Origin: Paludibacteraceae bacterium
GTDB taxonomy: Bacteria > Bacteroidota > Bacteroidia > Bacteroidales > Paludibacteraceae
Assembly (NCBI GenBank): GCA_017527495.1
Contig: JAFXPY010000004.1
Coordinates: forward strand, 7,102 to 71,101
Reading direction: 5' to 3'
Length of the DNA: 64,000 nucleotides
The notes under the pieces are model-generated. The model was given only the letters and a program-made list of their open reading frames with translations, was not told where the DNA came from and ran no database searches. Position numbers and translations under genes: made by a program. Positions 16,498 to 57,909 of the stretch are shown one piece after another. How positions within the stretch are numbered: position 1 is the first letter of the stretch; the number at the start of each line of letters is the position of its first letter.

Positions 16498-16873
16498 ATT
16501 AGTGTCCGACAAATAACATATATACATCTATATATTACTGAAAATAAGTAGAATATAACTATATCAAGTTTCGCTGTATTTAATTATTGGTGTCCGATAA
16601 TAAACATATATCCATTGATATATTATTGAAAAATAAGCTTAATATAACAGATATCAAAAATAGGGGCTTGTTTTTTTGAAAATATCGCGTAGCGATTTTC
16701 TTTTAATAGAATCAGATTAATTACAAATTTATATCCCGTGGGGATTTTCTTTTAATATCTTATTATCAATGATTTAAAAGAAATTCCCTATAGGAAAAAA
16801 TATTAGGTAATGTGTCAAATTTCTATTAAAAGAAATTCCCTAACGGGAAAACAAAGATTAATCGGACACTAAT
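16498..16873. repeat. candidate MITE-like unit bounded by 13-bp inverted repeats ATTAGTGTCCGAC / ATCGGACACTAAT, containing a duplicated ~88-bp left module and four short hairpins
   Basis: Left end at 16498-16510. An internal second left end, GGTGTCCGATAA, at 16589-16600. Right end at 16861-16873, which is the reverse complement with 12/13 matches. The right-hand 170 bp is colinear with 38760-38962. The left module recurs at 46779-46850. Confidence 0.6.
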
Positions 16874-23958: not shown

Positions 23959-24070
23959 AAAAAAAGATTGGAATCAGCCGCGAAAAAAAAGAATGAAATC
24001 AACCGTGGTAAAAAAGAATGGAATCAGCCGCGGAAAAAAAAGAATGGAATCAGCCAATATTGGCTGATTC
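23959..24070. repeat. ~25-bp tandem repeat x4 (A-run + GAATGGAATCAGCCGCGG); only the last unit is completed into a 24-nt perfect palindrome
   Basis: Units at 23959-23982, 23983-24009, 24010-24033 and 24034-24070. The palindrome GAATCAGCCAAT|ATTGGCTGATTC lies at 24047-24070. Confidence 0.9.
24034..24070 (-). terminator. intrinsic terminator of murI (24-nt palindrome + T-run on minus strand)
   Basis: Minus strand: GAATCAGCCAATATTGGCTGATTC CATTC TTTTTTTT. It starts right after the murI stop. Confidence 0.75.
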
Positions 24071-38080: not shown

Positions 38081-38556
38081 CTTTATGATTGATGATAATT
38101 GATGACAAAAAACAGCACCATTCCATTTGTTGGAAAATAATACCAAAACTTGAGGTACTGCCGCCGCAAAAAATAACTATCAAACACGAAGATAATTCGA
38201 AGATAATAAGAAGATACTCTACAGGTAAAAAATCCCCCCCAAAAAACGTAAAACGACAACTAACTTTGTGCAAAATTATTGACAAATAAGGCAATTATAT
38301 ATCTACTAATTACTCAATTTATTCAAGTTTCGCACATGGTAAATACAACAGATATATGATTATGGCAGTTATTTAATGCCTATCGCGTAGCGATTCTCTT
38401 TTAATAGAATAACTAAACTTTCCCACTTCTAAAATTACGGCGTTAGCCGTTGTATAGTAATAGATATAATTGCTAAACACCTTAATTTCAACCACGTAGT
38501 GGTTGCACGTTGATCAATATTCAAGTCAATCGCATAATAAATAAATCAATTTTCGC

Positions 38557-43667: not shown

Positions 43668-46652
43668 ATGAAAAAATTTTTACTTTTTTCCCTGCTATTC
43701 TTTATTTCATGTAGTGTTTTTGCCAATATAGCAACTCCTTTCCCTATTGAAGTAGAGCAACCGGATGGAACAACGCTGACGATTCGCTTGCATGGTAACG
43801 AACATTTTTCTTACAAGACTACTCTTGACAATCATTTTGTTGCACGTAATGACAAAGGAGAGTATGTCTATACAAAGTACAATACCGATGGCTCGCAAAA
43901 TCTTACGTCTGTTGTTGCCCACAATGCAGATTTTCGTGGGACAGCAGAGCAAAATTTTGTGGCTACTCTTTCTACTGAGTTGCCCTTCGACCAAATCGCT
44001 GTAACGCAGCGCCGTGCACCGCAACAGAAGCAGTTGTCACGTGGTTTCCCATTGTTAGGCTCTCCACGCAGTTTGGTTATACTGGTCAATTATAGTGATG
44101 TTAAGTTTATCACTGAGAATGCGCGTCAGGAGTTTGACGATTTGTGCAATCTCTCGGGATATTCAAAAAATAATAACCGTGGTTCGTGTCGTGATTTCTT
44201 TATAGCACAATCTGACAGCCTTTTCCAGCCTGATTTTGATGTAGTAGGTCCTTACGACCTGCCTCGTGAGCGTGCTTATTATGGTGCAGATGATGGCGAC
44301 AATCACTCTACTAATTCCGACCAAATGATTATTGGTGCCTGCGATTTGGCAGATGCTGCCGGCGTGGACTTTTCAAAATACGACTACGATGGTGATGGCG
44401 TAATCGACAATGTATTTGTGTTCTTTGCCGGACACGATCAGGCGCAGTCCGATATAACTGATGCAATATGGTCGCATAGATCAAACATCAGCCAGAATGT
44501 AGAGTTTGATGGCAAAAAATTGAGTGGTTATGCATGCTCGTCAGAGTTGCGCGGTGGCTCGGGAAGTACAGGAATGGCAACTATAGGAACTTTCTGTCAC
44601 GAATTTGGACATGTGCTCGGTTTGCCGGACTATTACGACACATCTTATAAATCAGGCGAGACAATCGGAACATGGGACATTATGTGCAATGGCTCATACA
44701 ATGGTCCTGAAAGATATTCTGGTGCCACACCTCCGTCTTATTGCTCACATTCACGCTGGTGGTTAGGCTGGAGAAAAGTTGAGCAACTGACTATGCCGGG
44801 TAGCTATAGCCTTTTGCCTGTTGCATTAGAAGGAACTACAAGTTATATGATAGCTCAAAACCGACACTCGCTCGACCCAACTGCAAAAGCAGAATATTTC
44901 TTGCTTGAAAACAGACAAAGAGTGGGTTGGGACAACACGACAACAAGTGTTCCAGGAACGGGCCTATTGGTATGGCATGTGATTTATGACGACGGAATAT
45001 GGCTCGCAAACCGACCGAACACATCTCCTAATTTGTTGTTCTATGTTGAGTCGGCAACAGGCAATAAACGAACAGCAGGTAGTGCCAATGATACCTACGG
45101 AGCACAAAAAAATGTTTTCATTCCTATGTTGGTTGATGGAACAAATATCAATCAACCTATCTACAATATCGCTCAGACAGGTGTCAATATGACCTTTACA
45201 TACAAAGAAGAAGAATTCAATGTAGTGCCACAACAGCTCAATACTTTTGTAACAGATATATGGTACGAAAACAAAAAAATCAATTCTTCAAAAACTGATT
45301 ATGCTATACAAAGCATTACTCTGAAAGCTGATTCACTCAGTCTTGAGGATTCTGTAATTACCATTACATCTAACAAAGAGCAATTTAGATTCTCTGCTGA
45401 TTCGTCTATAAATAGCGTATCAAGATCATATTCAATCAAACTCACAGAGGCAAAACTAAATCATAAGTTCTATGTTGTGTTTGCTCCAACAAAACCATAT
45501 TGTGAAGATAAAGCAATTGACGCAGTCCTGACTTTCCGTCATGGCTCAAATATGCAGGTATTGGCTGTTACAGGCTATGCCCCGCAGAAATCTTTAATGT
45601 CTGTTCCTGCGGCACTCAATCCTACTTATGTAACCCCTTATTCGGCTGAATTGAATTGGAAAAGTGTCAATGATGCAACAGATTATTATCTCACACTATA
45701 TCAGATGAGCGACAATGCTTCATCGCAAACGCAGAGTTTCGAGGATTTTGCTGATGCCTCAAAGGTGGCAATTGCAGGATGGAAGAGTAACTTCAATCGT
45801 ACAACTCGTACCTATAAACAAGACGGCAACTATAGCTTGTATTTCAATAATTCAGGTGAATATGTCGAAACCGAAACATATCCGGCCAATGTAAATCAAA
45901 TATCATTCTGGGTTGCACCTTACAATGTATCACCGAGCGATGCCGTCATTGGCAAACTCAAATTAGAAGGTTACAACGGCAAGAAATGGGTAAGTGTGGT
46001 GAATGAAATAACCATCCTCGCAAAAACAGAAAAAGGATTTTTGACTTTCGATGTTGATGAGAGTCTCGGTTTGTCGCAGTTCCGCTTGACGGCAACAACA
46101 GTTAACGGAAAAGGATTTGTCATAGATGCCTTTACAGCCAATATGGCAAAACAAATAACATACGTATTCCCTAACAAAAATGTGAGAGTTGAATCAACTA
46201 CCCTCAAGAGTGGTCAAATTGAGACTTATCATGTTGGCAATCTCAATCCTAATGCCAAATATTATTTCTATGTTGCAGCATCAGATGAAGCTCGTGCCTA
46301 TTGCAGAACCCACCTGACAGATGCTTCGGCAACAATAGAATTTTCTACATTAGAAGGCAATACCGGCGATCGCGATTTGACCTATGGAGTTATGGAAGTT
46401 GAGGTCGAAGAAGGCGGCATGTACTATAACAAACAGCAACGAATGATTTATGTTCCTGTTGCTGACGGCACATCAACATTGTATTTCTACGATGCCTTCG
46501 GTCATCTTGTTGCTTCTGTTCCTGTGCCTGCTCAGCAAAATGCCGTTCCATTCCCTGCAGGCAATTTTGAAGAAGGTCATTGGTATGTAATCAAATATTC
46601 GCCTAACGACAAAATGAAACGCAAAGACCGCAGAATAAAGATTCTGTATTAA
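43668..46652 (+). CDS. M6-family (immune-inhibitor-A-like) zinc metalloprotease with probable T9SS C-terminal sorting domain
   Basis: 994 aa. Signal peptide. HEFGHVLGLPDYYD zinc motif. Ig/FN3-like middle region. The last ~80 aa (..LYFYDAFGHLVASV..GHWYVIKY..RRIKILY) resemble a T9SS CTD. Confidence 0.82.
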   Translation: MKKFLLFSLLFFISCSVFANIATPFPIEVEQPDGTTLTIRLHGNEHFSYKTTLDNHFVARNDKGEYVYTKYNTDGSQNLTSVVAHNADFRGTAEQNFVATLSTELPFDQIAVTQRRAPQQKQLSRGFPLLGSPRSLVILVNYSDVKFITENARQEFDDLCNLSGYSKNNNRGSCRDFFIAQSDSLFQPDFDVVGPYDLPRERAYYGADDGDNHSTNSDQMIIGACDLADAAGVDFSKYDYDGDGVIDNVFVFFAGHDQAQSDITDAIWSHRSNISQNVEFDGKKLSGYACSSELRGGSGSTGMATIGTFCHEFGHVLGLPDYYDTSYKSGETIGTWDIMCNGSYNGPERYSGATPPSYCSHSRWWLGWRKVEQLTMPGSYSLLPVALEGTTSYMIAQNRHSLDPTAKAEYFLLENRQRVGWDNTTTSVPGTGLLVWHVIYDDGIWLANRPNTSPNLLFYVESATGNKRTAGSANDTYGAQKNVFIPMLVDGTNINQPIYNIAQTGVNMTFTYKEEEFNVVPQQLNTFVTDIWYENKKINSSKTDYAIQSITLKADSLSLEDSVITITSNKEQFRFSADSSINSVSRSYSIKLTEAKLNHKFYVVFAPTKPYCEDKAIDAVLTFRHGSNMQVLAVTGYAPQKSLMSVPAALNPTYVTPYSAELNWKSVNDATDYYLTLYQMSDNASSQTQSFEDFADASKVAIAGWKSNFNRTTRTYKQDGNYSLYFNNSGEYVETETYPANVNQISFWVAPYNVSPSDAVIGKLKLEGYNGKKWVSVVNEITILAKTEKGFLTFDVDESLGLSQFRLTATTVNGKGFVIDAFTANMAKQITYVFPNKNVRVESTTLKSGQIETYHVGNLNPNAKYYFYVAASDEARAYCRTHLTDASATIEFSTLEGNTGDRDLTYGVMEVEVEEGGMYYNKQQRMIYVPVADGTSTLYFYDAFGHLVASVPVPAQQNAVPFPAGNFEEGHWYVIKYSPNDKMKRKDRRIKILY

Positions 46653-50307: not shown

Positions 50308-50859
50308 TTATAATTGTTTTTGAGTGTTGATATATTCCACTTTGTTTCCAACGCTGTTGAGGAAGTGTTGGAAGGCGTCTTGAGAGATTACCACTGTTCC
50401 GCGGCAGTCATTAGGGTGGAAACTCAGTGATGCGGCATCTTTCAGACGACTGTCGAGAAAGAGAATCACATGGTGGTCGGTGTCGTTGATAAGTCCGAAA
50501 GGGCTTACGCTACCGGGTTCAAGACCGAGATAGCGCATCATGCGTTCAGGTGAAGCGAAAGATAATTTCCCCGGAGCGCGGTGTCCTTGTGAGACAAGAA
50601 TATCTTTGAGCCAATGTTCAATGTCATGAATGGCGAGGTCGTCGTCGCAAGGGAAACAGATGAGATAGTGTTGATCGCCTTTATGGTTGCGCATAAAGAT
50701 GTTTTTGCAATGCACCGAGCCATCGTCTTTCCACCACCGCTTAGCTTCTTCAATAGTCTTACCTTCGGGGTGATTGTAGGTTGTGAAAGGGATGTTGTGC
50801 TCTGTCAGGTAGCGCAACACATGTTCTTGTCTGTCAGATATAATTTCGTAGTTCATCAT
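50308..50859 (-). CDS. YbaK/ProX-like aminoacyl-tRNA editing domain protein
   Basis: 183 aa. ..VHCKNIFMRNHKGDQHYLI.. and LGLEPGSVSPFGLIND motifs are typical of prolyl-tRNA-synthetase-associated editing domains. Confidence 0.72.
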   Translation of the reverse strand: MMNYEIISDRQEHVLRYLTEHNIPFTTYNHPEGKTIEEAKRWWKDDGSVHCKNIFMRNHKGDQHYLICFPCDDDLAIHDIEHWLKDILVSQGHRAPGKLSFASPERMMRYLGLEPGSVSPFGLINDTDHHVILFLDSRLKDAASLSFHPNDCRGTVVISQDAFQHFLNSVGNKVEYINTQKQL

Positions 50860-50995
50860 AATAGTAATACAAAATTAATTTTATGGTTTTGCATTATTTT
50901 ATCAATCTTAAATTCAAATTAATAATGCAACAATGCTAATTTTTTGCAAAGTTACATTTTTTTTGCAAAAGTGTGAATATACTTTATTTGAATTA

Positions 50996-52054
50996 CTAAA
51001 AGTTTTCTTTACTTCTCTCACTTTTGCAAATCTCCTCCGCCATTGTATTCAGCGCAATACAGTCAGCACGGCTGATATGTTTCTTTTCAGCATCATGCTC
51101 CCATGGACTAAGAATCAACACTCGTCCTTCTGCTACAGCATCAAACAGACTATCCTGAGGCTTATAATATTCCAGAAAACCATTGTTGGCGAGATAGCTA
51201 AACGGGAGTTTCTCTTTTAAAAGCACAGCCATCACTTCTTTTTCTTTTTGCGAGATAAAAGGCGAAACCATAACCGTACCATGCCGTGCTGCTATTACAC
51301 AGCTGTTCATATAGTCACGCAAAGGCAGTATCTCGCCGTGTCCTGCTGCCTCTAACATCGTTCGGCGCACATGTACGGGGCGGTATTTCTCTTCTTGCAG
51401 CAATGCTATATTGACCACACCGCTATATTCGCGTCCTGCTATTTTGATGTTATGCTGAACGCGAAAGAGACCGGGCATAAGACGTTTGGTGGCTAACCGC
51501 TGTGGATTCATTTCGACGTACCGAATCATAGCCTGCAGCTGCCCTCGTCGCGACATGGGGCGAATAAAAGGCATCTCAGAAAATATCGGTTCACAAGGCT
51601 TATTTTGGCAAACTGAATCCTCTCCACTTAGGCAACGTTGGTTGTACCGAATAGTATTCGGGCTAATTGACGTTGTACATTTTGATATTTGGTTGATTGA
51701 TGCTGAGTATTCTCGCCCTGCTTTCTTTGCCCCTTGCCATAATCCGCGCACCAACATTTTGATGCTTACATCCATGGTCTGAGTCACATAAAGGATAACA
51801 TGCACATGGTCGGGCATCATTCTCAGTTTTATTATTCTTACTTCCTTATGCCGTTTCGGAATCTCATTCACACAGGCTTTTACACGAAGTCCCAACTCGC
51901 TAAGTTCCACTCTCGCTTGTTCCGGATCGTTATCAGGAATGACGAGTTCTCCGAGTAGCGGTTCTCGGCTTGACACCACGAGCGTCACATGGTAAATGCC
52001 GATGCCTTTCCATGCCGTACCAGGCTCCTGCCAATGCCATTGTTCGTCTGCCAT
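50996..52054 (-). CDS. IS200/IS605-type Y1 HUH transposase-like protein (RAYT-like) with ~170-aa C-terminal extension
   Basis: 352 aa. HUH motif in MMPDHVHVILYV (residues ~83-85). Catalytic-Tyr helix motif IRYVEMNPQR (Tyr ~179). No second transposase ORF (tnpB) adjacent. -7 box at 52177-52184. Confidence 0.7.
   Translation of the reverse strand: MADEQWHWQEPGTAWKGIGIYHVTLVVSSREPLLGELVIPDNDPEQARVELSELGLRVKACVNEIPKRHKEVRIIKLRMMPDHVHVILYVTQTMDVSIKMLVRGLWQGAKKAGREYSASINQISKCTTSISPNTIRYNQRCLSGEDSVCQNKPCEPIFSEMPFIRPMSRRGQLQAMIRYVEMNPQRLATKRLMPGLFRVQHNIKIAGREYSGVVNIALLQEEKYRPVHVRRTMLEAAGHGEILPLRDYMNSCVIAARHGTVMVSPFISQKEKEVMAVLLKEKLPFSYLANNGFLEYYKPQDSLFDAVAEGRVLILSPWEHDAEKKHISRADCIALNTMAEEICKSERSKENF
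51636..51678. repeat. 43-bp repeat, copy inside the HUH/Y1 gene (codons ~127-140), with 7+7 palindrome CCGAATA-G-TATTCGG
   Basis: CGTTGGTTGTACCGAATAGTATTCGGGCTAATTGACGTTGTAC matches 52112-52154 at 37 of the first 40 positions. Confidence 0.9.
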
Positions 52055-52111
52055 GTTTTGTGTTCTAATGCTTATTTAAGTTTGTTTTTTATCTTAATGC
52101 TAACTTATCAG

Positions 52112-52154
52112 CGTTCGTTGTCCCGAATAGTATTCGAGCTAATTGACGTTGCCG
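52112..52154. repeat. 43-bp repeat, copy in the leader of the HUH/Y1 gene (between the -7 box and the ATG)
   Basis: CGTTCGTTGTCCCGAATAGTATTCGAGCTAATTGACGTTGCCG. Confidence 0.9.
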
Positions 52155-52176
52155 TTATTCCGAATTATCTTTTTTG

Positions 52177-52184
52177 CAAAGTTA
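52177..52184 (-). promoter_or_regulatory. candidate -7 box for the HUH/Y1 gene
   Basis: CAAAGTTA on the + strand, 123 nt before ATG 52054. The 43-bp repeat lies in the predicted leader. Confidence 0.5.
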
Positions 52185-52228
52185 CTCTTTCTTTTGTATT
52201 TATGCAAATTTTAGTTTCCTTAGTTATC

Positions 52229-55200
52229 TCATTCTCTTATCACAATCGTTTCGCTTGGTGCAGTGGTGCGGAACTCATGAGCGTAGCAGCATTGTGCGGT
52301 GGCAAGTCCTAACTGATAGGTTCCGGGGCGAGTAAGGAAATACTCGGTTTCGATTGCATGAGTGCCTTCGCTCAGACCTAAGTAGGAATAAATGGTTTCG
52401 GTGTCGTGCGGTGCTATATGAACGAAACTGTCGTTCCTTGTCAGTTGGTTAACAGGCTCCATACATGCGGCACGGACATCACGAATCTCGACCATGTCGA
52501 AGTTGCGTTTGCACTCCAACTCAAGTCGAATACGTATGCGGTCGCCTACATGCAGGTTTTCCGTATCGGTGAGTATTTCTCTTCGGAGTATCATATCGCC
52601 GCCTTGCGCCGTAACGTCTTGCAGCGGTTGTATGAACTGAGCGCTCACAACACCCCATGACAGACCTTGAGTGAGTTTGTTGAAAACAACCTGTTTGGTG
52701 TTGTTCTCCAAATCGACATGTGCTGATTTTTCTCGCCCTTGAAACTCTATAGACAGACATGCGTTATCTGCATAAATCTGAACAGCATTGAACATGTTCT
52801 CTGCCGCAAGATGCTCTTTATTTGTGAAAAGCAGTGCATGAACGGCATTCACACTATCAAGCGGTGTCTCCCATTGTTGAGTTCGCTTTTCCTGCAAGAG
52901 CCATATCTGCATCTCGCCAAGTGTTTGGCTGTCGTCAGGGCGAAGTGTGTGCAACACTTCCATGACTAAGACATGTGTAGGAATCTTATAACTCATCCAT
53001 GAATACGAAGCGCGCGGCGTGTCAAACCAGCGTCCTTTTTGTGGCTCAAATGTGGTATATTGATAGAGACTTTCTGCATAGATAGCAGCACGACGATGTT
53101 CACCATTATATTCCAAAATAAGTGCTGTCATGGCTTTCTCGCGAATAGTCTGAATGTGAATGTCTTTCTTGAGCAGTTGCACCAAATAATCGTACGCTTC
53201 CTTCGTTTCACCGGTTAGTTCTCGCTTCTGCAAAGCACAGTTATAGAGATGTTGCAGGCAGGTATAACTCGGGAAATATGTCGTCTTTCCTTCTTTCTCA
53301 TGTTTCTTGAGTTCCTTTACTTCTTTGCACATTTGTATGTCTAAATATGCATTTGCACTGCTCATGATTTTTTCTAATGCACTGCTATCTTGTGTGATAT
53401 GAACAAGTCTTGACAGATGCATCATCACTTCTGCGGTTATGAATGAAGATGAGTGCATGTGGATATACCATGCAAAGCTACCATCTTGCTTTTGCAACCG
53501 CTTTAGTTTGCTTATCAGGTCAAATGTTTTATATGTCTCACCAATATCAGTCATCGCAAGCAGGCGTTGGATATGCTTGGTAAGGCAGCTGCAATATAGT
53601 GCTATGACGATAGATATAACATTCTCGGGATTAGGTTCTACTATCTGCGGTAGTGCCTTGTAGGCGAGCCAGAAAGGATTGGCTGTATAGTCAGCTGAAA
53701 GCCTTCGATGTGTTGACGACTGAGGCACAAGGTCTTGAACGGGAAACGCATATTTGCCAACTTCCGTCTGCGAAAAAGTATGGGTAGCAACTACTTCTTC
53801 TGTGTTCGACAAAACAGGTATTTGATGTCGTTCGCCATCCGAGAAGTCCTCACCTATAACTACTATTGTGCAAATCAATGAACTATATTCTGACGATACT
53901 GCATAATTGAATGCCACATTTTCAGTCTGGTTAGCAGATATTTTAACCTGTTGTTCAGCGCAAAAAACGACCTGCTCTGATTCTGCATCTTGAAGACTGA
54001 TTTGCACTATGCCTGCAAGATCTTTTCCTGAGAGGTTTGTAACTTTTGCGGAGAGCACGACTGCATCACCAGCTCGCATAAATCGCGGAAGATTAGGTTG
54101 AAGCATCATCGGCTTCTGTGCTATTACTTCGTCAGTGATGAAAGCATGGTGCATCTCTCGGGTGTGAGCAAAGCCCTTGAAACACCAAGTGGTAAGGGTG
54201 TCAGGCAGGTCAAACTCTATACTTATATCTCCGTTTTCGTCAGTTCTCAGTTGAGGCATAAAGAAAGCTGTTTCAGCGAAATTGGTGCGGAGTTGTACCT
54301 TTTTGTTTGTTTGATCATTTTCCTCGTCATCATCAGGACATCCACTTGGAGAAGCCGCACTACAACATGCCTTCTCTAAATTATCTGGAACAAATTCATA
54401 TTTAGGACATGAGAGGTAATACTCGTAATATTGGATATTATTGTCATGAATATCATAGGTATTCCATTTCGTGTCGGGTATATGCCACGAAATGTCAGGA
54501 ATTACATGTTTCCAAGAGTGCGGTATCAGTTGCTCGAGCGATTTATCATAGAGTGTGGCAATGAGGTTGGTGGCAATTGGCATGTCGTTTTCTGTTATTC
54601 TGAGTCGCCATGTCTCGTGCGTTCCTGGTTTAAGTCGATTACGGAAAGTCTCCCAATGCATTTGCAGGTCAAGTTTTTCTTCGGGTGGAAGAATAGAAAA
54701 CTCGGCATGATGGAATTCTGCATTTTTAACCCAAGCAAAGCAAGCACGAATACCATATTTATACTCGTCTTTGAATTGCAGTTGTAGGTTGAGCATACCG
54801 TCTGAAGCAACAACATGTCCACGCTCAATCACCTCACGGTCGGATAAAATGCAATATAGGATATAGGTGTCAGAACTGCTTGTGCCGATTTGCAGATATA
54901 TGGGTTCGTCTTTTGTAAATCGCTTTGCGGAACAATAGTACCAATCGTCTGTCTTAATCGCAGGCTTAAGACTTTGTTTGTCAACCACCAAAACAGAGCG
55001 CTCCAACTTTTCTTCCTTGTAACTGATCTGAATAGTATGTTGGCCTATGCCTAACTGCGGAAGCAGAAGGTCGGTATTAGGAGAAACAAGAAGCGGCTTA
55101 TTATCGTCTATTTGTACTTGCACTTGAGCTTGGATTTCCTCACCCCCGACATTGGTCAGCACGATTCGATATTTTGATTGCTCGTGCAGTTCTTTTTTCT

Positions 55201-57325
55201 CAGGCACATTGCAAGAGAGAAAATATTCCCTATTACTCAGCGGAAGCACTATCTCGGCACTATGTGTCTCACCTGTATTGTCTGCCACATCAGCAATAAC
55301 AACAAAATCGTAGTAACCATACTCATCTTTTTCGTAAGGTAATTCCAACTTAACTTGCATTGAGAACGATCCGTCTGAGGCGGTTAGACAAGTACCATTG
55401 TCAATATATTCTCCTTCTCGTTCATATTGGCTGCCTTCGTAGTCCCAATATCGGCTATAGAACCACCACCAGTGGGCGCGACGGCGAACGACCTTATACT
55501 TGACCATAGCACCGCTTATAGGTACTCCGGCATAAGATTGTGCTTGTCCCGAGAGTTGAATTGTATCTTCTGCCTTATAAGATTGATGATACGGATTCAG
55601 AGTAACCTCAAAAGTAGGGTGTTTATACTCTTCTACACGAGCCGAGTAGTTGGCGGTATTGCCAGCATTTATATTAAGTTCGCCTGTTGGAATATCATCA
55701 GGGATAGAAAAATCGACATGCGCTACTCCGAAGTCATCGGTTGTGAGTGCTTTTTTGAGCAGTGTCTTGTGTTTAGCGTCGGTGATGATTAGTGGAAGCA
55801 TTTTAGCCACTGTATTCAGCTTATTGTCGTCTGTTTTGAAATAGGTCAAGACGGCGATGTGAACACATTGTCCGGGGCGATAGATAGAGCGGTCGGTCAG
55901 AATCTTAACGAGATTCTCTTCTCTGTTCTTATTCCAACTGACCCAAGAATATAAATTGTCACATAAAGCCGACTTGTCAGTTGGAGTATAAGCAACTATA
56001 TCATCGTAATGATTATATCTAAATAGAGCTTCCGCATCTTTATTACAGAGATTCTCGGTATAAGTTTTATTGTTTTTGCGATGACTATACCTTTCCACTT
56101 TCCGGATAACTGCACCTTCAACCGGAAATCCGCTCTTAGCATTAAGAACGGCAAAACGTGTCTTTTTCTCTGATTCCTCATTGGCAACAAGCATGAGATT
56201 GCTTACTTGCTGGCGAATGAATTTTCTGACCTTATTGTTTATTCTCAGCTCTATAATATATGTCCCTATCGGAAGACTATCTAAGTTGAACTCGCGAGTT
56301 TCAAAAAGATATGGTGCGATGTCGTGATTCTCAGCCTCAAGTTGCAAAATAGGTTTTTTGTTGCCAATAATCTTTTCTACTTTATCTTCATCATCCATAT
56401 CAACAGCGTCCCAAGCGGTTAGAGCTGTTTCATATACAATAAGGCTGAGTTCTTGAGCATTACGACATTTTAGACATATATGCTTGGGTTGACTCTCGTA
56501 CCAAACTTGTTTAATATCATTGATATTTTCTATAGAAATGGAGCACAATTCTTTTAGATAGTCTTTCAGTTGGTCGGCATGACACCAATCGCCCCATCTT
56601 TTAATAGCATCCGTCAAAAAACGATATTGTGACTGAGCTATTTTGTTTTCTTCGTCTATGGATTCGGCAGCACTATCACTCCATTTTTTATACCTATAGT
56701 ATTGGATGGCCGCTTCACCTGCCACCGGCAAATCTCCATAGTCGTGCATAACATTCTCTAATGCTGCAAGGTCAGGGTTTCTATAGTTTTCTAAAGCTAT
56801 CATGGTGAGCAAATAAGCTTGTGCAGCACGATTATTGGTTTGAGAATAGTGGTCGTAAAGCAATTGATATTGTTGCATTTCAAGTCCGATGACAGCATAG
56901 AGTTCATTGTTGAAAAGTTCTGTCATTTCCGATTCTTTTATAACCCACGAATACTTAGTTAAATCGGTTGACCATATCTCGCTATCCACATTGAATAGTT
57001 TTTTCCAATCTATCTCCTCATTGTCTATATAAAGCGTTTTCTTTGTATGGAAAAGAATAAGCGAAAACACTGCTACCATTGGAATATTATTATCATTGAT
57101 AGCAGAATTCATTCCGTCAACAATAGATTGCAGCACCATTTTAGACATGTCTCTCAAGACATAGTATCCTTGCTTATTAGCAAAAAGAATGAGTTTGCCA
57201 AGCGCTTTCAAGTTATGCTCCTCTAAATAATGGTTGCATAAGTCGTTGTATAATTTTGCACTATCTTGTGGCAAGTCGTTTTTCCATGCTTTGTGCAGTT
57301 GGAAAAGTTGAATGAGTGTGTTCAT
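52229..57325 (-). CDS. alpha-2-macroglobulin/MG2-domain family giant protein, no signal peptide and no thioester motif seen
   Basis: 1698 aa. MG2-type ILTDRSIYRPGQCVHIAVL and EEYKHPTFEV. A2M-type NFAETAFFMPQLRTDENGDISIEFDLPDTLTTWCFKGFAHT. The N-terminal ~400 aa is helical with no hydrophobic signal. No C-x-E-Q was found. Confidence 0.78.
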   Translation of the reverse strand: MNTLIQLFQLHKAWKNDLPQDSAKLYNDLCNHYLEEHNLKALGKLILFANKQGYYVLRDMSKMVLQSIVDGMNSAINDNNIPMVAVFSLILFHTKKTLYIDNEEIDWKKLFNVDSEIWSTDLTKYSWVIKESEMTELFNNELYAVIGLEMQQYQLLYDHYSQTNNRAAQAYLLTMIALENYRNPDLAALENVMHDYGDLPVAGEAAIQYYRYKKWSDSAAESIDEENKIAQSQYRFLTDAIKRWGDWCHADQLKDYLKELCSISIENINDIKQVWYESQPKHICLKCRNAQELSLIVYETALTAWDAVDMDDEDKVEKIIGNKKPILQLEAENHDIAPYLFETREFNLDSLPIGTYIIELRINNKVRKFIRQQVSNLMLVANEESEKKTRFAVLNAKSGFPVEGAVIRKVERYSHRKNNKTYTENLCNKDAEALFRYNHYDDIVAYTPTDKSALCDNLYSWVSWNKNREENLVKILTDRSIYRPGQCVHIAVLTYFKTDDNKLNTVAKMLPLIITDAKHKTLLKKALTTDDFGVAHVDFSIPDDIPTGELNINAGNTANYSARVEEYKHPTFEVTLNPYHQSYKAEDTIQLSGQAQSYAGVPISGAMVKYKVVRRRAHWWWFYSRYWDYEGSQYEREGEYIDNGTCLTASDGSFSMQVKLELPYEKDEYGYYDFVVIADVADNTGETHSAEIVLPLSNREYFLSCNVPEKKELHEQSKYRIVLTNVGGEEIQAQVQVQIDDNKPLLVSPNTDLLLPQLGIGQHTIQISYKEEKLERSVLVVDKQSLKPAIKTDDWYYCSAKRFTKDEPIYLQIGTSSSDTYILYCILSDREVIERGHVVASDGMLNLQLQFKDEYKYGIRACFAWVKNAEFHHAEFSILPPEEKLDLQMHWETFRNRLKPGTHETWRLRITENDMPIATNLIATLYDKSLEQLIPHSWKHVIPDISWHIPDTKWNTYDIHDNNIQYYEYYLSCPKYEFVPDNLEKACCSAASPSGCPDDDEENDQTNKKVQLRTNFAETAFFMPQLRTDENGDISIEFDLPDTLTTWCFKGFAHTREMHHAFITDEVIAQKPMMLQPNLPRFMRAGDAVVLSAKVTNLSGKDLAGIVQISLQDAESEQVVFCAEQQVKISANQTENVAFNYAVSSEYSSLICTIVVIGEDFSDGERHQIPVLSNTEEVVATHTFSQTEVGKYAFPVQDLVPQSSTHRRLSADYTANPFWLAYKALPQIVEPNPENVISIVIALYCSCLTKHIQRLLAMTDIGETYKTFDLISKLKRLQKQDGSFAWYIHMHSSSFITAEVMMHLSRLVHITQDSSALEKIMSSANAYLDIQMCKEVKELKKHEKEGKTTYFPSYTCLQHLYNCALQKRELTGETKEAYDYLVQLLKKDIHIQTIREKAMTALILEYNGEHRRAAIYAESLYQYTTFEPQKGRWFDTPRASYSWMSYKIPTHVLVMEVLHTLRPDDSQTLGEMQIWLLQEKRTQQWETPLDSVNAVHALLFTNKEHLAAENMFNAVQIYADNACLSIEFQGREKSAHVDLENNTKQVVFNKLTQGLSWGVVSAQFIQPLQDVTAQGGDMILRREILTDTENLHVGDRIRIRLELECKRNFDMVEIRDVRAACMEPVNQLTRNDSFVHIAPHDTETIYSYLGLSEGTHAIETEYFLTRPGTYQLGLATAQCCYAHEFRTTAPSETIVIRE

Positions 57326-57396
57326 AATGGTAAGAGAATTAAATTTGTTTTCCTTTTAGTACATCAATGCAGTCTGGTGGCTATTCTGCAATCTTC

Positions 57397-57909
57397 CTAA
57401 TACTCGCTTATGTATATCAAATCCTCGGGATAGTTTTTGTCAAGGGCGTTATCAAATAATGATTTATTCTTTGACAAGAACGCAGTCCATACTTCTTCTA
57501 ATTTCTGTGCCTGTGCGTCGGTGAGTACTAAGCCTGAATGACCGCGTGCCCACTCAAAGTCAGGAATGGCTTGCTCTAATTCGCTGCAAATCAATATCGG
57601 CAACGCATCGGGATTCAACAGCACATCGGGCAGAAAATCTACATAATACGTCTCGCGACCTTTGCCTGACCAATCTTCTTCTTTGTATGGCTCTGAGGTT
57701 ATTGTATCGGAAGAAACGATACCGGTCTGACCATACATTCCGACTTTTACCATGAAGAAACGGTCGCCCTTGTGTATCTCACGCCAGTCCCATACCAACC
57801 AGTTGTAGTCGAAATTATCTTCTTCGCGAAGACGATACATGTCCTCTAAATAATGCATCATCGAATAAGACGAAAATGCAGGGTTCCATTTCAGTATTAC
57901 AGTTTTCAT
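57397..57909 (-). CDS. hypothetical cytoplasmic protein, possibly PUA/EVE-like beta-barrel
   Basis: 170 aa. The pattern VILKWNP....W.VW.W..IHKGDRFFMVKVG..GQTGIVSSDTITSEPY resembles PUA-like (EVE/ASCH) folds; weak, by eye only. -7 box at 57935-57942. Lies 71 bp upstream of the A2M-like gene. Confidence 0.5.
   Translation of the reverse strand: MKTVILKWNPAFSSYSMMHYLEDMYRLREEDNFDYNWLVWDWREIHKGDRFFMVKVGMYGQTGIVSSDTITSEPYKEEDWSGKGRETYYVDFLPDVLLNPDALPILICSELEQAIPDFEWARGHSGLVLTDAQAQKLEEVWTAFLSKNKSLFDNALDKNYPEDLIYISEY

Follow-up and report, generated by a model that had tools for sequence, protein, structure and literature searches.

A two-domain RAYT-like HUH protein of a Paludibacteraceae bacterium with a predicted DprA-like domain and its own low-copy REP-like hairpin

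REP-associated tyrosine transposases (RAYTs) are a textbook case of a domesticated transposase that co-evolves with its repeats, the repetitive extragenic palindromes (REPs). The TnpA transposases of the IS200/IS605 insertion sequences (IS608, ISDra2 and IS200; 2vju, 2xm3 and 2f4f) recognise subterminal hairpins on one strand of single-stranded DNA (ssDNA). They belong to insertion sequences (ISs) that are mobile and multi-copy, with left- and right-end hairpins around the whole element, and they are about 150 aa long with a Y-x-x-x-Q motif. Among the class-2 RAYTs, subclass 2.4 (RAYT group 4; Cyanobacteria and Bacteroidetes) is reported to have REPs placed in frame, "double-foot" ones among them, in a variable peripheral stretch of the gene that lies between HuH and Y (Quentin et al., 2018; PMC6006769). 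The table of that work puts the 2.4 insertion at beta3-alphaC, and the 2.4 proteins have a median length of 194 aa and no C-terminal domain. The same authors described a Bacteroidetes subclass 2.6 with an alphaC-beta4 insertion and atypical flanking hairpins, as well as C-terminal DnaA_C/HTH domains (2.1) and a Chromatiales/Alteromonadales-specific tail (2.3), and reported no DprA-like fusion. In this work, a related gene was studied in a Paludibacteraceae bacterium (GCA_017527495.1; 2.47 Mb, 59 contigs, 98% complete). The gene lies in a stretch of 64,000 nt (contig JAFXPY010000004.1, positions 7,102 to 71,101), which is called the window here. Its coding sequence (CDS) for a protein of 352 aa occupies 50996..52054 of the window on the minus strand, as do all other features of the gene given below. 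We favour, with moderate confidence, the reading that the gene is not an IS but encodes a class-2 RAYT-like enzyme that would nick and join ssDNA and that carries a DprA-like ssDNA-binding domain. Together with its own 43-nt REP-like hairpin, the gene would form a minimal, non-proliferating REPtron.

The open reading frame of 352 aa with HUH and Tyr motifs, reported in a preliminary description of this DNA, is real. It starts with ATG, ends with the stop codon at 50996-50998, and contains MMPDHVHVILYV (H83, H85) and MIRYVEMNPQR (Y179) in a product composed of an HUH/Y1 domain, a linker and a predicted DprA-like domain. The N-terminal HUH/Y1 (TnpA_Y1, RAYT-like) catalytic domain was delimited by Foldseek and Pfam Y1_Tnp to residues 1 to ~195 (51470..52054) and is split by the linker. 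The codons of the HUH motif D82-H83-V84-H85 (PDHVHV) are located at 51800..51811, and the codon of the predicted catalytic Tyr179 (IRYVEMNPQR) at 51518..51520, within a model helix of residues 172-192. Across 103 diverse members of the family, M80, P81, H83, H85, Q172, Y179, N183, P184, R186, F197, S268, E271, G292, R329 and N336 were invariant. The Tyr motif of the window protein, YVEMNP, is of the class-2 type Y-[IV]-x-x-N-P, and the family consensus is Y-V/I-x-D-N-P. The assignment is borderline if only sequence models are considered. PF01797 (Y1_Tnp) matched at E <= 0.1 in 86 of the 103 members, the six-frame Y1_Tnp search of the own genome gave 22.9 bits for the window gene (23.7 bits after summing neighbouring in-frame matches), and NCBIfam transpos_IS200 reached 17.4 bits against a cut-off of 55. 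Because a single-sequence search of the PDB gave nothing useful and a profile search gave weak TnpA matches (E 1.4e-3), a comparison of folds was needed. The AlphaFold2 model of the window protein, built on the 103-member alignment, had a mean predicted local distance difference test (pLDDT) of 89.2 and a predicted template modelling score of 0.82, and only residues ~121-160 were poorly defined. A second AlphaFold model, of the linker-less and 33%-identical paralog type P0391, reached a pLDDT of 93.7. In a Foldseek search against the PDB, the catalytic half of the window protein matched the TnpA proteins of ISDra2, IS608 and IS200, which were its best structural matches, and the E. coli RAYT 4er8 (E 2.6e-5 to 4.5e-4, probability 1.00). 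The rmsd (root-mean-square deviation) to 4er8, which was solved with a REP hairpin, was 2.6 A over 171 columns. The P0391 model returned the same two sets of matches as that of the window protein, one of TnpA and RAYT, the other of ShosA and DprA. The HUH/Y1 part of the two-domain reading is therefore well supported by the models. The earlier reading as a RAYT-like HUH/Y1 protein and not an IS is borne out by the fold match to TnpA and 4er8, by the class-2 Tyr motif, and by the lack of near-identical copies and of tnpB in the genome and at the locus, respectively. The gene resembles RAYT/TnpA_REP (class 2; 4er8) in its HUH motif, in the single Tyr of the Y-[IV]-x-x-N-P helix, in the one copy per type, in the cognate hairpin at the gene and in the missing tnpB.

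On the other hand, the window protein is twice as long as a RAYT because of its putative DprA-like C-terminal domain. An extension of ~170 aa had been noted before; it is present and conserved, its length is ~155 aa, and a DprA-like fold would explain it. Foldseek with both models points to a DprA/SLOG-like Rossmann domain at residues ~196-352 (50999..51469), with matches to ShosA 8zva (E 4.7e-6), to DprA 4ljk, 3uqz and 5mll (E 1e-3 to 1e-2) and also to 3maj. ShosA and DprA are ssDNA-binding Rossmann-fold proteins (PMC11961720). According to the models, the C-terminal domain would have the Rossmann-type fold in common with DprA/Smf and ShosA (4ljk, 3uqz, 5mll, 3maj and 8zva). It differs from DprA/Smf in having neither the SAM nor the winged-helix domain, in giving no match to Pfam DNA_processg_A, and in being fused to an HUH nuclease. 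Neither the window protein (Pfam and NCBIfam) nor any of the 103 members (Pfam) gave a match to the C-terminal half, the DprA family PF02481 included. A separate bona fide dprA is present in the same genome, on C37. When the family profile was aligned with this DprA by hhalign, the register was consistent with the motifs, VS-x-x-IS-x-GEK being placed on SGLAYGID and NGF..YYKP on HGLDRIYP. A full-text search of the literature found no fusion of a DprA-like domain to a RAYT or HUH protein.

The linker between helix alphaC and strand beta4 (residues ~121-160; 51575..51694) is variable and predicted to be disordered, with pLDDT block means of 50-54 for residues 121-150. Its length differs among orthologues, and it is missing from the paralog on C13. 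The linker contains one copy of a 43-nt double-stem hairpin (51633..51675), which encodes TTSISPNTIRYNQRC (residues 127-141). The other copy has the same orientation and is in the leader (52109..52151), where it covers about nucleotides +18 to +60 of the predicted transcript, 55-97 nt ahead of the ATG. The two copies form a direct repeat of 91% identity, and no other copy occurs in the 2.47-Mb genome. The CCGAATA-n-TATTCGG palindrome that was previously seen by the gene is real and belongs to this repeat; its stem, loop and foot are unlike those of the mosaic hairpins found elsewhere in the window. The long HUH-to-Tyr spacing, previously put at ~94 aa, was confirmed as 96 residues from H83 to Y179, compared with 56 in the linker-less paralog, and it results from this in-frame, hairpin-bearing disordered linker of ~40 aa. 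Folded as ssDNA, the in-gene copy has CAACGT/ACGTTG as its outer stem and CCGAAT/ATTCGG as its inner stem, with an 8x8 internal loop between them and a 3-nt loop at the tip; the energies are -8.4 kcal/mol for the sense and -9.5 kcal/mol for the antisense strand (z about -3). In contrast to the REPs of RAYTs, which number tens to hundreds, the hairpin has two copies, and the second is inside the gene and not downstream of it. No copy follows the window gene; the C13 paralog has its elements at both flanks. A search of other genomes for the hairpin type of the window gene as a dispersed repeat found it in only 1-2 places per genome. An assignment to the CGTC-tagged REPs (PMC3733652) was considered and not adopted, as CGTC is 7 nt from the inner stem and not at the foot, and the stems and loops differ. 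On the plus strand, the window has a weakly positive GC skew, by which the antisense strand of the gene would be the lagging-strand template, but so weak a signal is of no use here.

The hairpin appears to be under structural selection. The in-gene element was present in all orthologue loci examined (L011, L012/13, L019-L022, L024 and L025; 58-94% protein identity), sometimes twice. The leader copy was present in L011, L012, L013, L020 and L021 and missing from L019, L022, L024 and L025. Compensatory changes occurred in the stems of the orthologues, e.g., CTCGAAT/ATTCGAG and CTTGAAT/ATTCAAG. In 17 aligned elements, 91% of the cells were paired, and changes on both sides were seen in 7 of the 13 pairs, in both stems. 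None of 500 shuffles reached these values, and slid registers paired at 26-45%. Furthermore, the third-codon-position identity in eight orthologues was 0.79 in the 15 hairpin codons. For the two folded domains it was 0.59-0.60, and for the linker directly 3' of the hairpin 0.45. Stem covariation and high third-position identity together indicate that the nucleic-acid structure itself, as DNA or RNA, is under selection. In three orthologues, the 5' arm of the element was amplified in tandem at the leader and the linker (L020:1291-1401 and 1858-1955; L011; L021). The leader units have 19 nt (CAAAAAACAACGGCAACAT, ~5 copies), and the linker units have 30 nt and are repeated in frame 3.3 times, encoding PTSISPTSEC repeats. 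A remnant of a window-type gene was also seen in a related metagenome-assembled genome (MAG), G425 (L023:1489-1761). It covers only residues ~137-196; its start coincides exactly with the 3' arm of the hairpin, and a REP-like hairpin (ACTCCGTAGGAGT) and a module headed by GGTGTCCGAT are attached to it.

The gene had been called solo. This is correct within the window and with respect to near-identical copies, but the genome contains four more full-length paralogs (C21, C51, C43 and C13; 33-39% identity to the window protein) and one fragment. A Pfam Y1_Tnp search of the whole genome found only these paralog loci, so the five genes are its only Y1/HUH genes. Their contexts are unrelated and include RuvC, an EcoRI-type methylase with GmrSD, an ABC ATPase with SDR, and recA. 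The C51 paralog (L004, C51:39691-43665) stands between the EcoRI-type adenine methyltransferase and the GmrSD-type restriction endonuclease, and its stop codon is followed by a long A-rich tandem array (units with AATAATAACGAGAA). The fragment (C20:75016-75450; L002:1486-1920) is an N-terminal-only copy of 144 aa, 62% identical over residues 4-122 (119 aa), which ends ~12 codons past its own linker hairpin (CCCGCATGACATGTGGG, one G-T pair) and is probably a truncated pseudogene or a split form. Three of the paralogs have hairpins of their own in the linker and again in the leader, namely GGCAGAT-GAC-ATCTGCC in C21, CCGCAGAT-TAA-ATCTGCGG in C51 and ATCAGCCAATATTGGCTGAT in C43. The linker-less C13 paralog has identical 36-nt hairpin elements upstream and just past its stop codon. 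Most of the paralog elements fold as the same double-stem architecture. The C43-type hairpin occupies eight places in the genome and the C13-type seven. One of the C43-type places is in the window (24049-24068; C50:31150-31169), a perfect 20-nt palindrome identical to the in-gene hairpin of the C43 paralog. With eight genome places, ATCAGCCAATATTGGCTGAT is a low-copy dispersed hairpin, and it may be the REP of the C43 paralog. In other Bacteroidales members, perfect 7-9-bp stems are present in the HUH-to-Tyr interval (per-gene shuffle p 0.006-0.07), while members with a short spacing of 56-60 residues had no hairpin stem in this interval. Even in deeply diverged subfamilies, the linker hairpins have kept their position within a linker that otherwise diverges. 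Moreover, the C43-type and C51-type hairpins recur unchanged in orthologues of other MAGs. Since the hairpins are conserved by subfamily across genomes, each protein subfamily goes with a hairpin of its own, as in the co-evolution of RAYTs and REPs.

Among the closest known systems is subclass 2.4, with which the window gene shares a hairpin in frame between HuH and Y. The differences are the motifs DHVH and YVEMNP/YIHDNP (vs NH[IFV]H and YIxNNP), the length of 352 aa and the insertion at alphaC-beta4. The family profile gave matches in 161 of 401 order-level genomes, and in many of these 161 genomes there were short Bacteroidales proteins that match its N-terminal half only. These short relatives carry the 2.4-like motifs MPNH[FIL]H and YIxNNP, and in a tree of the catalytic domain the two-domain proteins split from them with 100/100 support. 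A REP inside the gene is thus already known; with its two domains and its private pair of low-copy hairpins, the present system looks like a variant not described before.

We hypothesize that the HUH domain binds and cleaves the hairpin in ssDNA, which would be exposed at replication forks, in repair or in transcription, as IS608 TnpA and the E. coli RAYT do with their own hairpins. The DprA-like domain could hold the flanking ssDNA, or dimerise, or recruit RecA. The leader copy, just downstream of the promoter, might serve as a cis site for feedback on the protein's own expression. We regard the fold, the invariant HUH and Tyr, a promoter box that neighbouring genes also have, the private hairpin pair, the selection on its structure and the cross-genome conservation of the subfamily-specific hairpins as established parts of this proposal. 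Several points weigh against it. The Pfam Y1_Tnp score of the protein (21.8 bits) is below the gathering score of 23 and covers residues 54-97 only, and NCBIfam REP_Tyr_transpos (NF047646) reached 19.5 bits, below the cut-off of 80. The DprA-like character of the C-terminal domain is derived from predicted folds, and the hhalign probability with the genome's own DprA was only 1.6%, which we count as weak support. The stability of the leader copy does not exceed that of shuffled sequence (z -0.4), and this copy is not essential because some orthologues are without it. Finally, binding and cleavage of the hairpin by the protein are suggested by homology alone.

The preliminary description linked the gene to long intergenic mosaics of hairpins in the window that resemble REPs and bacterial interspersed mosaic elements (BIMEs). 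Its idea, that this gene or a paralog is a RAYT mobilising the abundant REP/BIME-like mosaics of the genome, seems unlikely to us. The mosaic hairpin cores that it listed are truly repeated genome-wide, with 61 exact copies of ATCGCGTAGCGAT, 23 of TTCCCTACGGGAA and five of AAACCGCTTTAGCGGTTT (16 with at most one mismatch). They belong to a large superfamily with a TCTAT(TAA) foot, 5-9-bp G+C stems and TAC/TAAC loops, which gave ~260 matches of foot plus hairpin compared with 65 in the reversed-genome control. The stems covary between subfamilies (ATCGC-TAC-GCGAT, CAACGGC-TAAC-GCCGTTG, TTCCC-TAC-GGGAA), and examples are found in the window at 16684-16706 and 38382-38404 (C50:23785-23807 and 45483-45505). 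That the five paralogs are the only Y1/HUH genes of the genome speaks for such a role, as do the double-stem, 3-nt-loop architecture that the mosaic elements have in common with the private hairpins and the TCTAT in the hairpin feet of the C21 and C51 paralogs. In addition, the C13-type hairpin is present at five more sites inside mosaics, and r2 and r3 modules are found 0.3-0.5 kb downstream of the C13 gene, the only paralog with mosaics nearby. This adjacency is not significant: with one element per 9.5 kb, chance would be expected to bring a mosaic to within 600 nt of about one in five genes. The hairpin of the window gene has another stem, loop and foot and only two copies, and no mosaic adjoins the gene. 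Co-occurrence of the family and the mosaics across genomes lends the link no support. The r2 module with its foot has 67 copies in this genome and none in 40 relatives, and the same relatives are also without the two-domain family and its paralog set, save for one distant member; taken by itself, this joint absence speaks for the idea. In contrast, four MAGs with 58-83% identical orthologues and 3-11 family matches each have 0-1 copies of the mosaic foot, compared with 117 here, and the header module is at background level in them. All three patterns (r2, foot and header) are specific to this genome. As the relatives are MAGs, whose assemblies may under-represent repeats, this absence is soft evidence and no hard refutation. 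Thus, the repeats were not found to be abundant in genomes that lack the protein, nor is the gene a multi-copy IS, but its link to the mosaics is unsupported.

The two copies could also be without any function, the in-gene hairpin being a neutral relic of an old REP insertion in a permissive loop and the leader copy a chance local duplication. REPs are known to have inserted into permissive loops of many genes, tnpA_REP among them (PMC6006769, PMC3733652). The linker of the window protein is disordered and also dispensable, given that the C13 paralog is without it, and the tandem duplication of the element and its 5' arm in some orthologues is what slippage-prone DNA would show. The compensatory changes in both stems and the synonymous-site conservation above that of the catalytic core argue against neutrality, as do hairpins kept in place in deeply diverged subfamilies and across genomes. 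We therefore consider the relic explanation distinctly unlikely.

A third explanation is that the hairpins act as RNA, by affecting mRNA stability, by controlling translation or by antisense pairing, with no part played by the HUH activity. REPs stabilise upstream mRNA, which lends this explanation some plausibility. The Bacteroidetes -7 element is TAnnTTTG, and a Bacteroidetes-type promoter box containing it, TAACTTTGCAAAA, was found ahead of the 352-aa gene (52172-52184); both hairpin copies are located downstream of this box, in the predicted transcript. The box has five matches in the window compared with 0.34 expected, each of them 5' of a gene, and the normal promoter box of the earlier account is thereby upheld, the same box being present 5' of three other window genes. 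A scan for sigma-70 promoters and terminators showed nothing relevant at the gene. No Rfam family was found in 50800-52400, and neither copy is followed by a terminator-like T run. The 121-nt leader RNA is as stable as its shuffles (z -0.45), and the second copy of the linker-less paralog is past the stop codon. Moreover, G-T pairs give the antisense strand of the in-gene copy a fold no weaker than that of the sense strand, and the hairpin identity follows the protein subfamily, as would be expected for a partnership of protein and DNA. An RNA-level role is thus very unlikely in our estimation.

A bolder version of the ssDNA-nicking proposal is that both same-orientation hairpins are working cleavage sites. 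The enzyme would then excise or re-join the 476-nt segment encoding its own HUH core, giving a DNA switch or a mini-circle of ssDNA; its resolution or re-integration would fall to RecA, recruited by the DprA-like domain. The end of the C20 fragment, the start of the L023 remnant and the tandem amplification of the 5' arm are compatible, anecdotal hints of DNA breakage and joining at the hairpin. We give this version as a speculation, highly improbable as it stands.

That the gene is an ordinary IS200/IS605-type IS is almost certainly wrong: the TnpA fold with its HUH and Tyr, the partly different neighbourhoods of the orthologues and the remnant in the related MAG that starts exactly at the hairpin 3' arm would fit, but there is no second genome copy above 62% identity, the Tyr motif is YVEMNP and not the class-1 Y-x-x-x-Q (Y-[IV]-E-N-Q), the protein has 352 aa and not ~150 aa, and conservation with the orthologues extends to the leader, the promoter and a downstream promoter, as for a resident gene. 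A search of the own genome had returned divergent paralogs only (33-39%, and 62% over the 119-aa fragment), and their low identity and unrelated contexts mark them as divergent resident paralogs and not as an IS. The lack of tnpB and of IS ends was also stated correctly at the outset; no repeats or hairpin pair flank the whole gene, the copies being in the leader and the CDS with none downstream.

The surroundings of the gene differ among relatives. In the window, a 1698-aa A2M-like gene separates the HUH gene from a 170-aa gene (57397-57909), and a tRNA_edit (YbaK-like) gene follows (52229-57909 for the interval up to the end of the 170-aa gene). In a close relative with a 94%-identical orthologue (L012:1588-3383), a 170-aa gene that is 95% identical to the one in the window stands directly 5' of the HUH gene, and a McrB-like gene is 3' of it. 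Because the gene order differs between the window and this relative, the locus is a variable island. Most orthologues stand immediately upstream of a McrBC-like pair, with WYL and HIRAN-like genes next to them. Scans of single proteins for related loci gave five in genome contigs and two in metagenome contigs.

The protein belongs to a large Bacteroidales family. A total of 3159 homologues were found at E <= 1e-3 (90% clusters), nearly all of them unnamed or annotated as "hypothetical" and from Paludibacteraceae and Bacteroidales MAGs; at 50% clustering there were 1554 representatives. For annotation, this means that genes of the family should not be named IS transposases. The fusion to a DprA-like, putatively ssDNA-binding domain points to a coupling of hairpin cleavage with the handling of ssDNA or with recombination. 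The cognate hairpins are kept at a very low copy number, at the gene itself, and under measurable structural selection. A system of one enzyme and one or two sites would lend itself to dissection far more readily than a genome in which REPs number in the hundreds.

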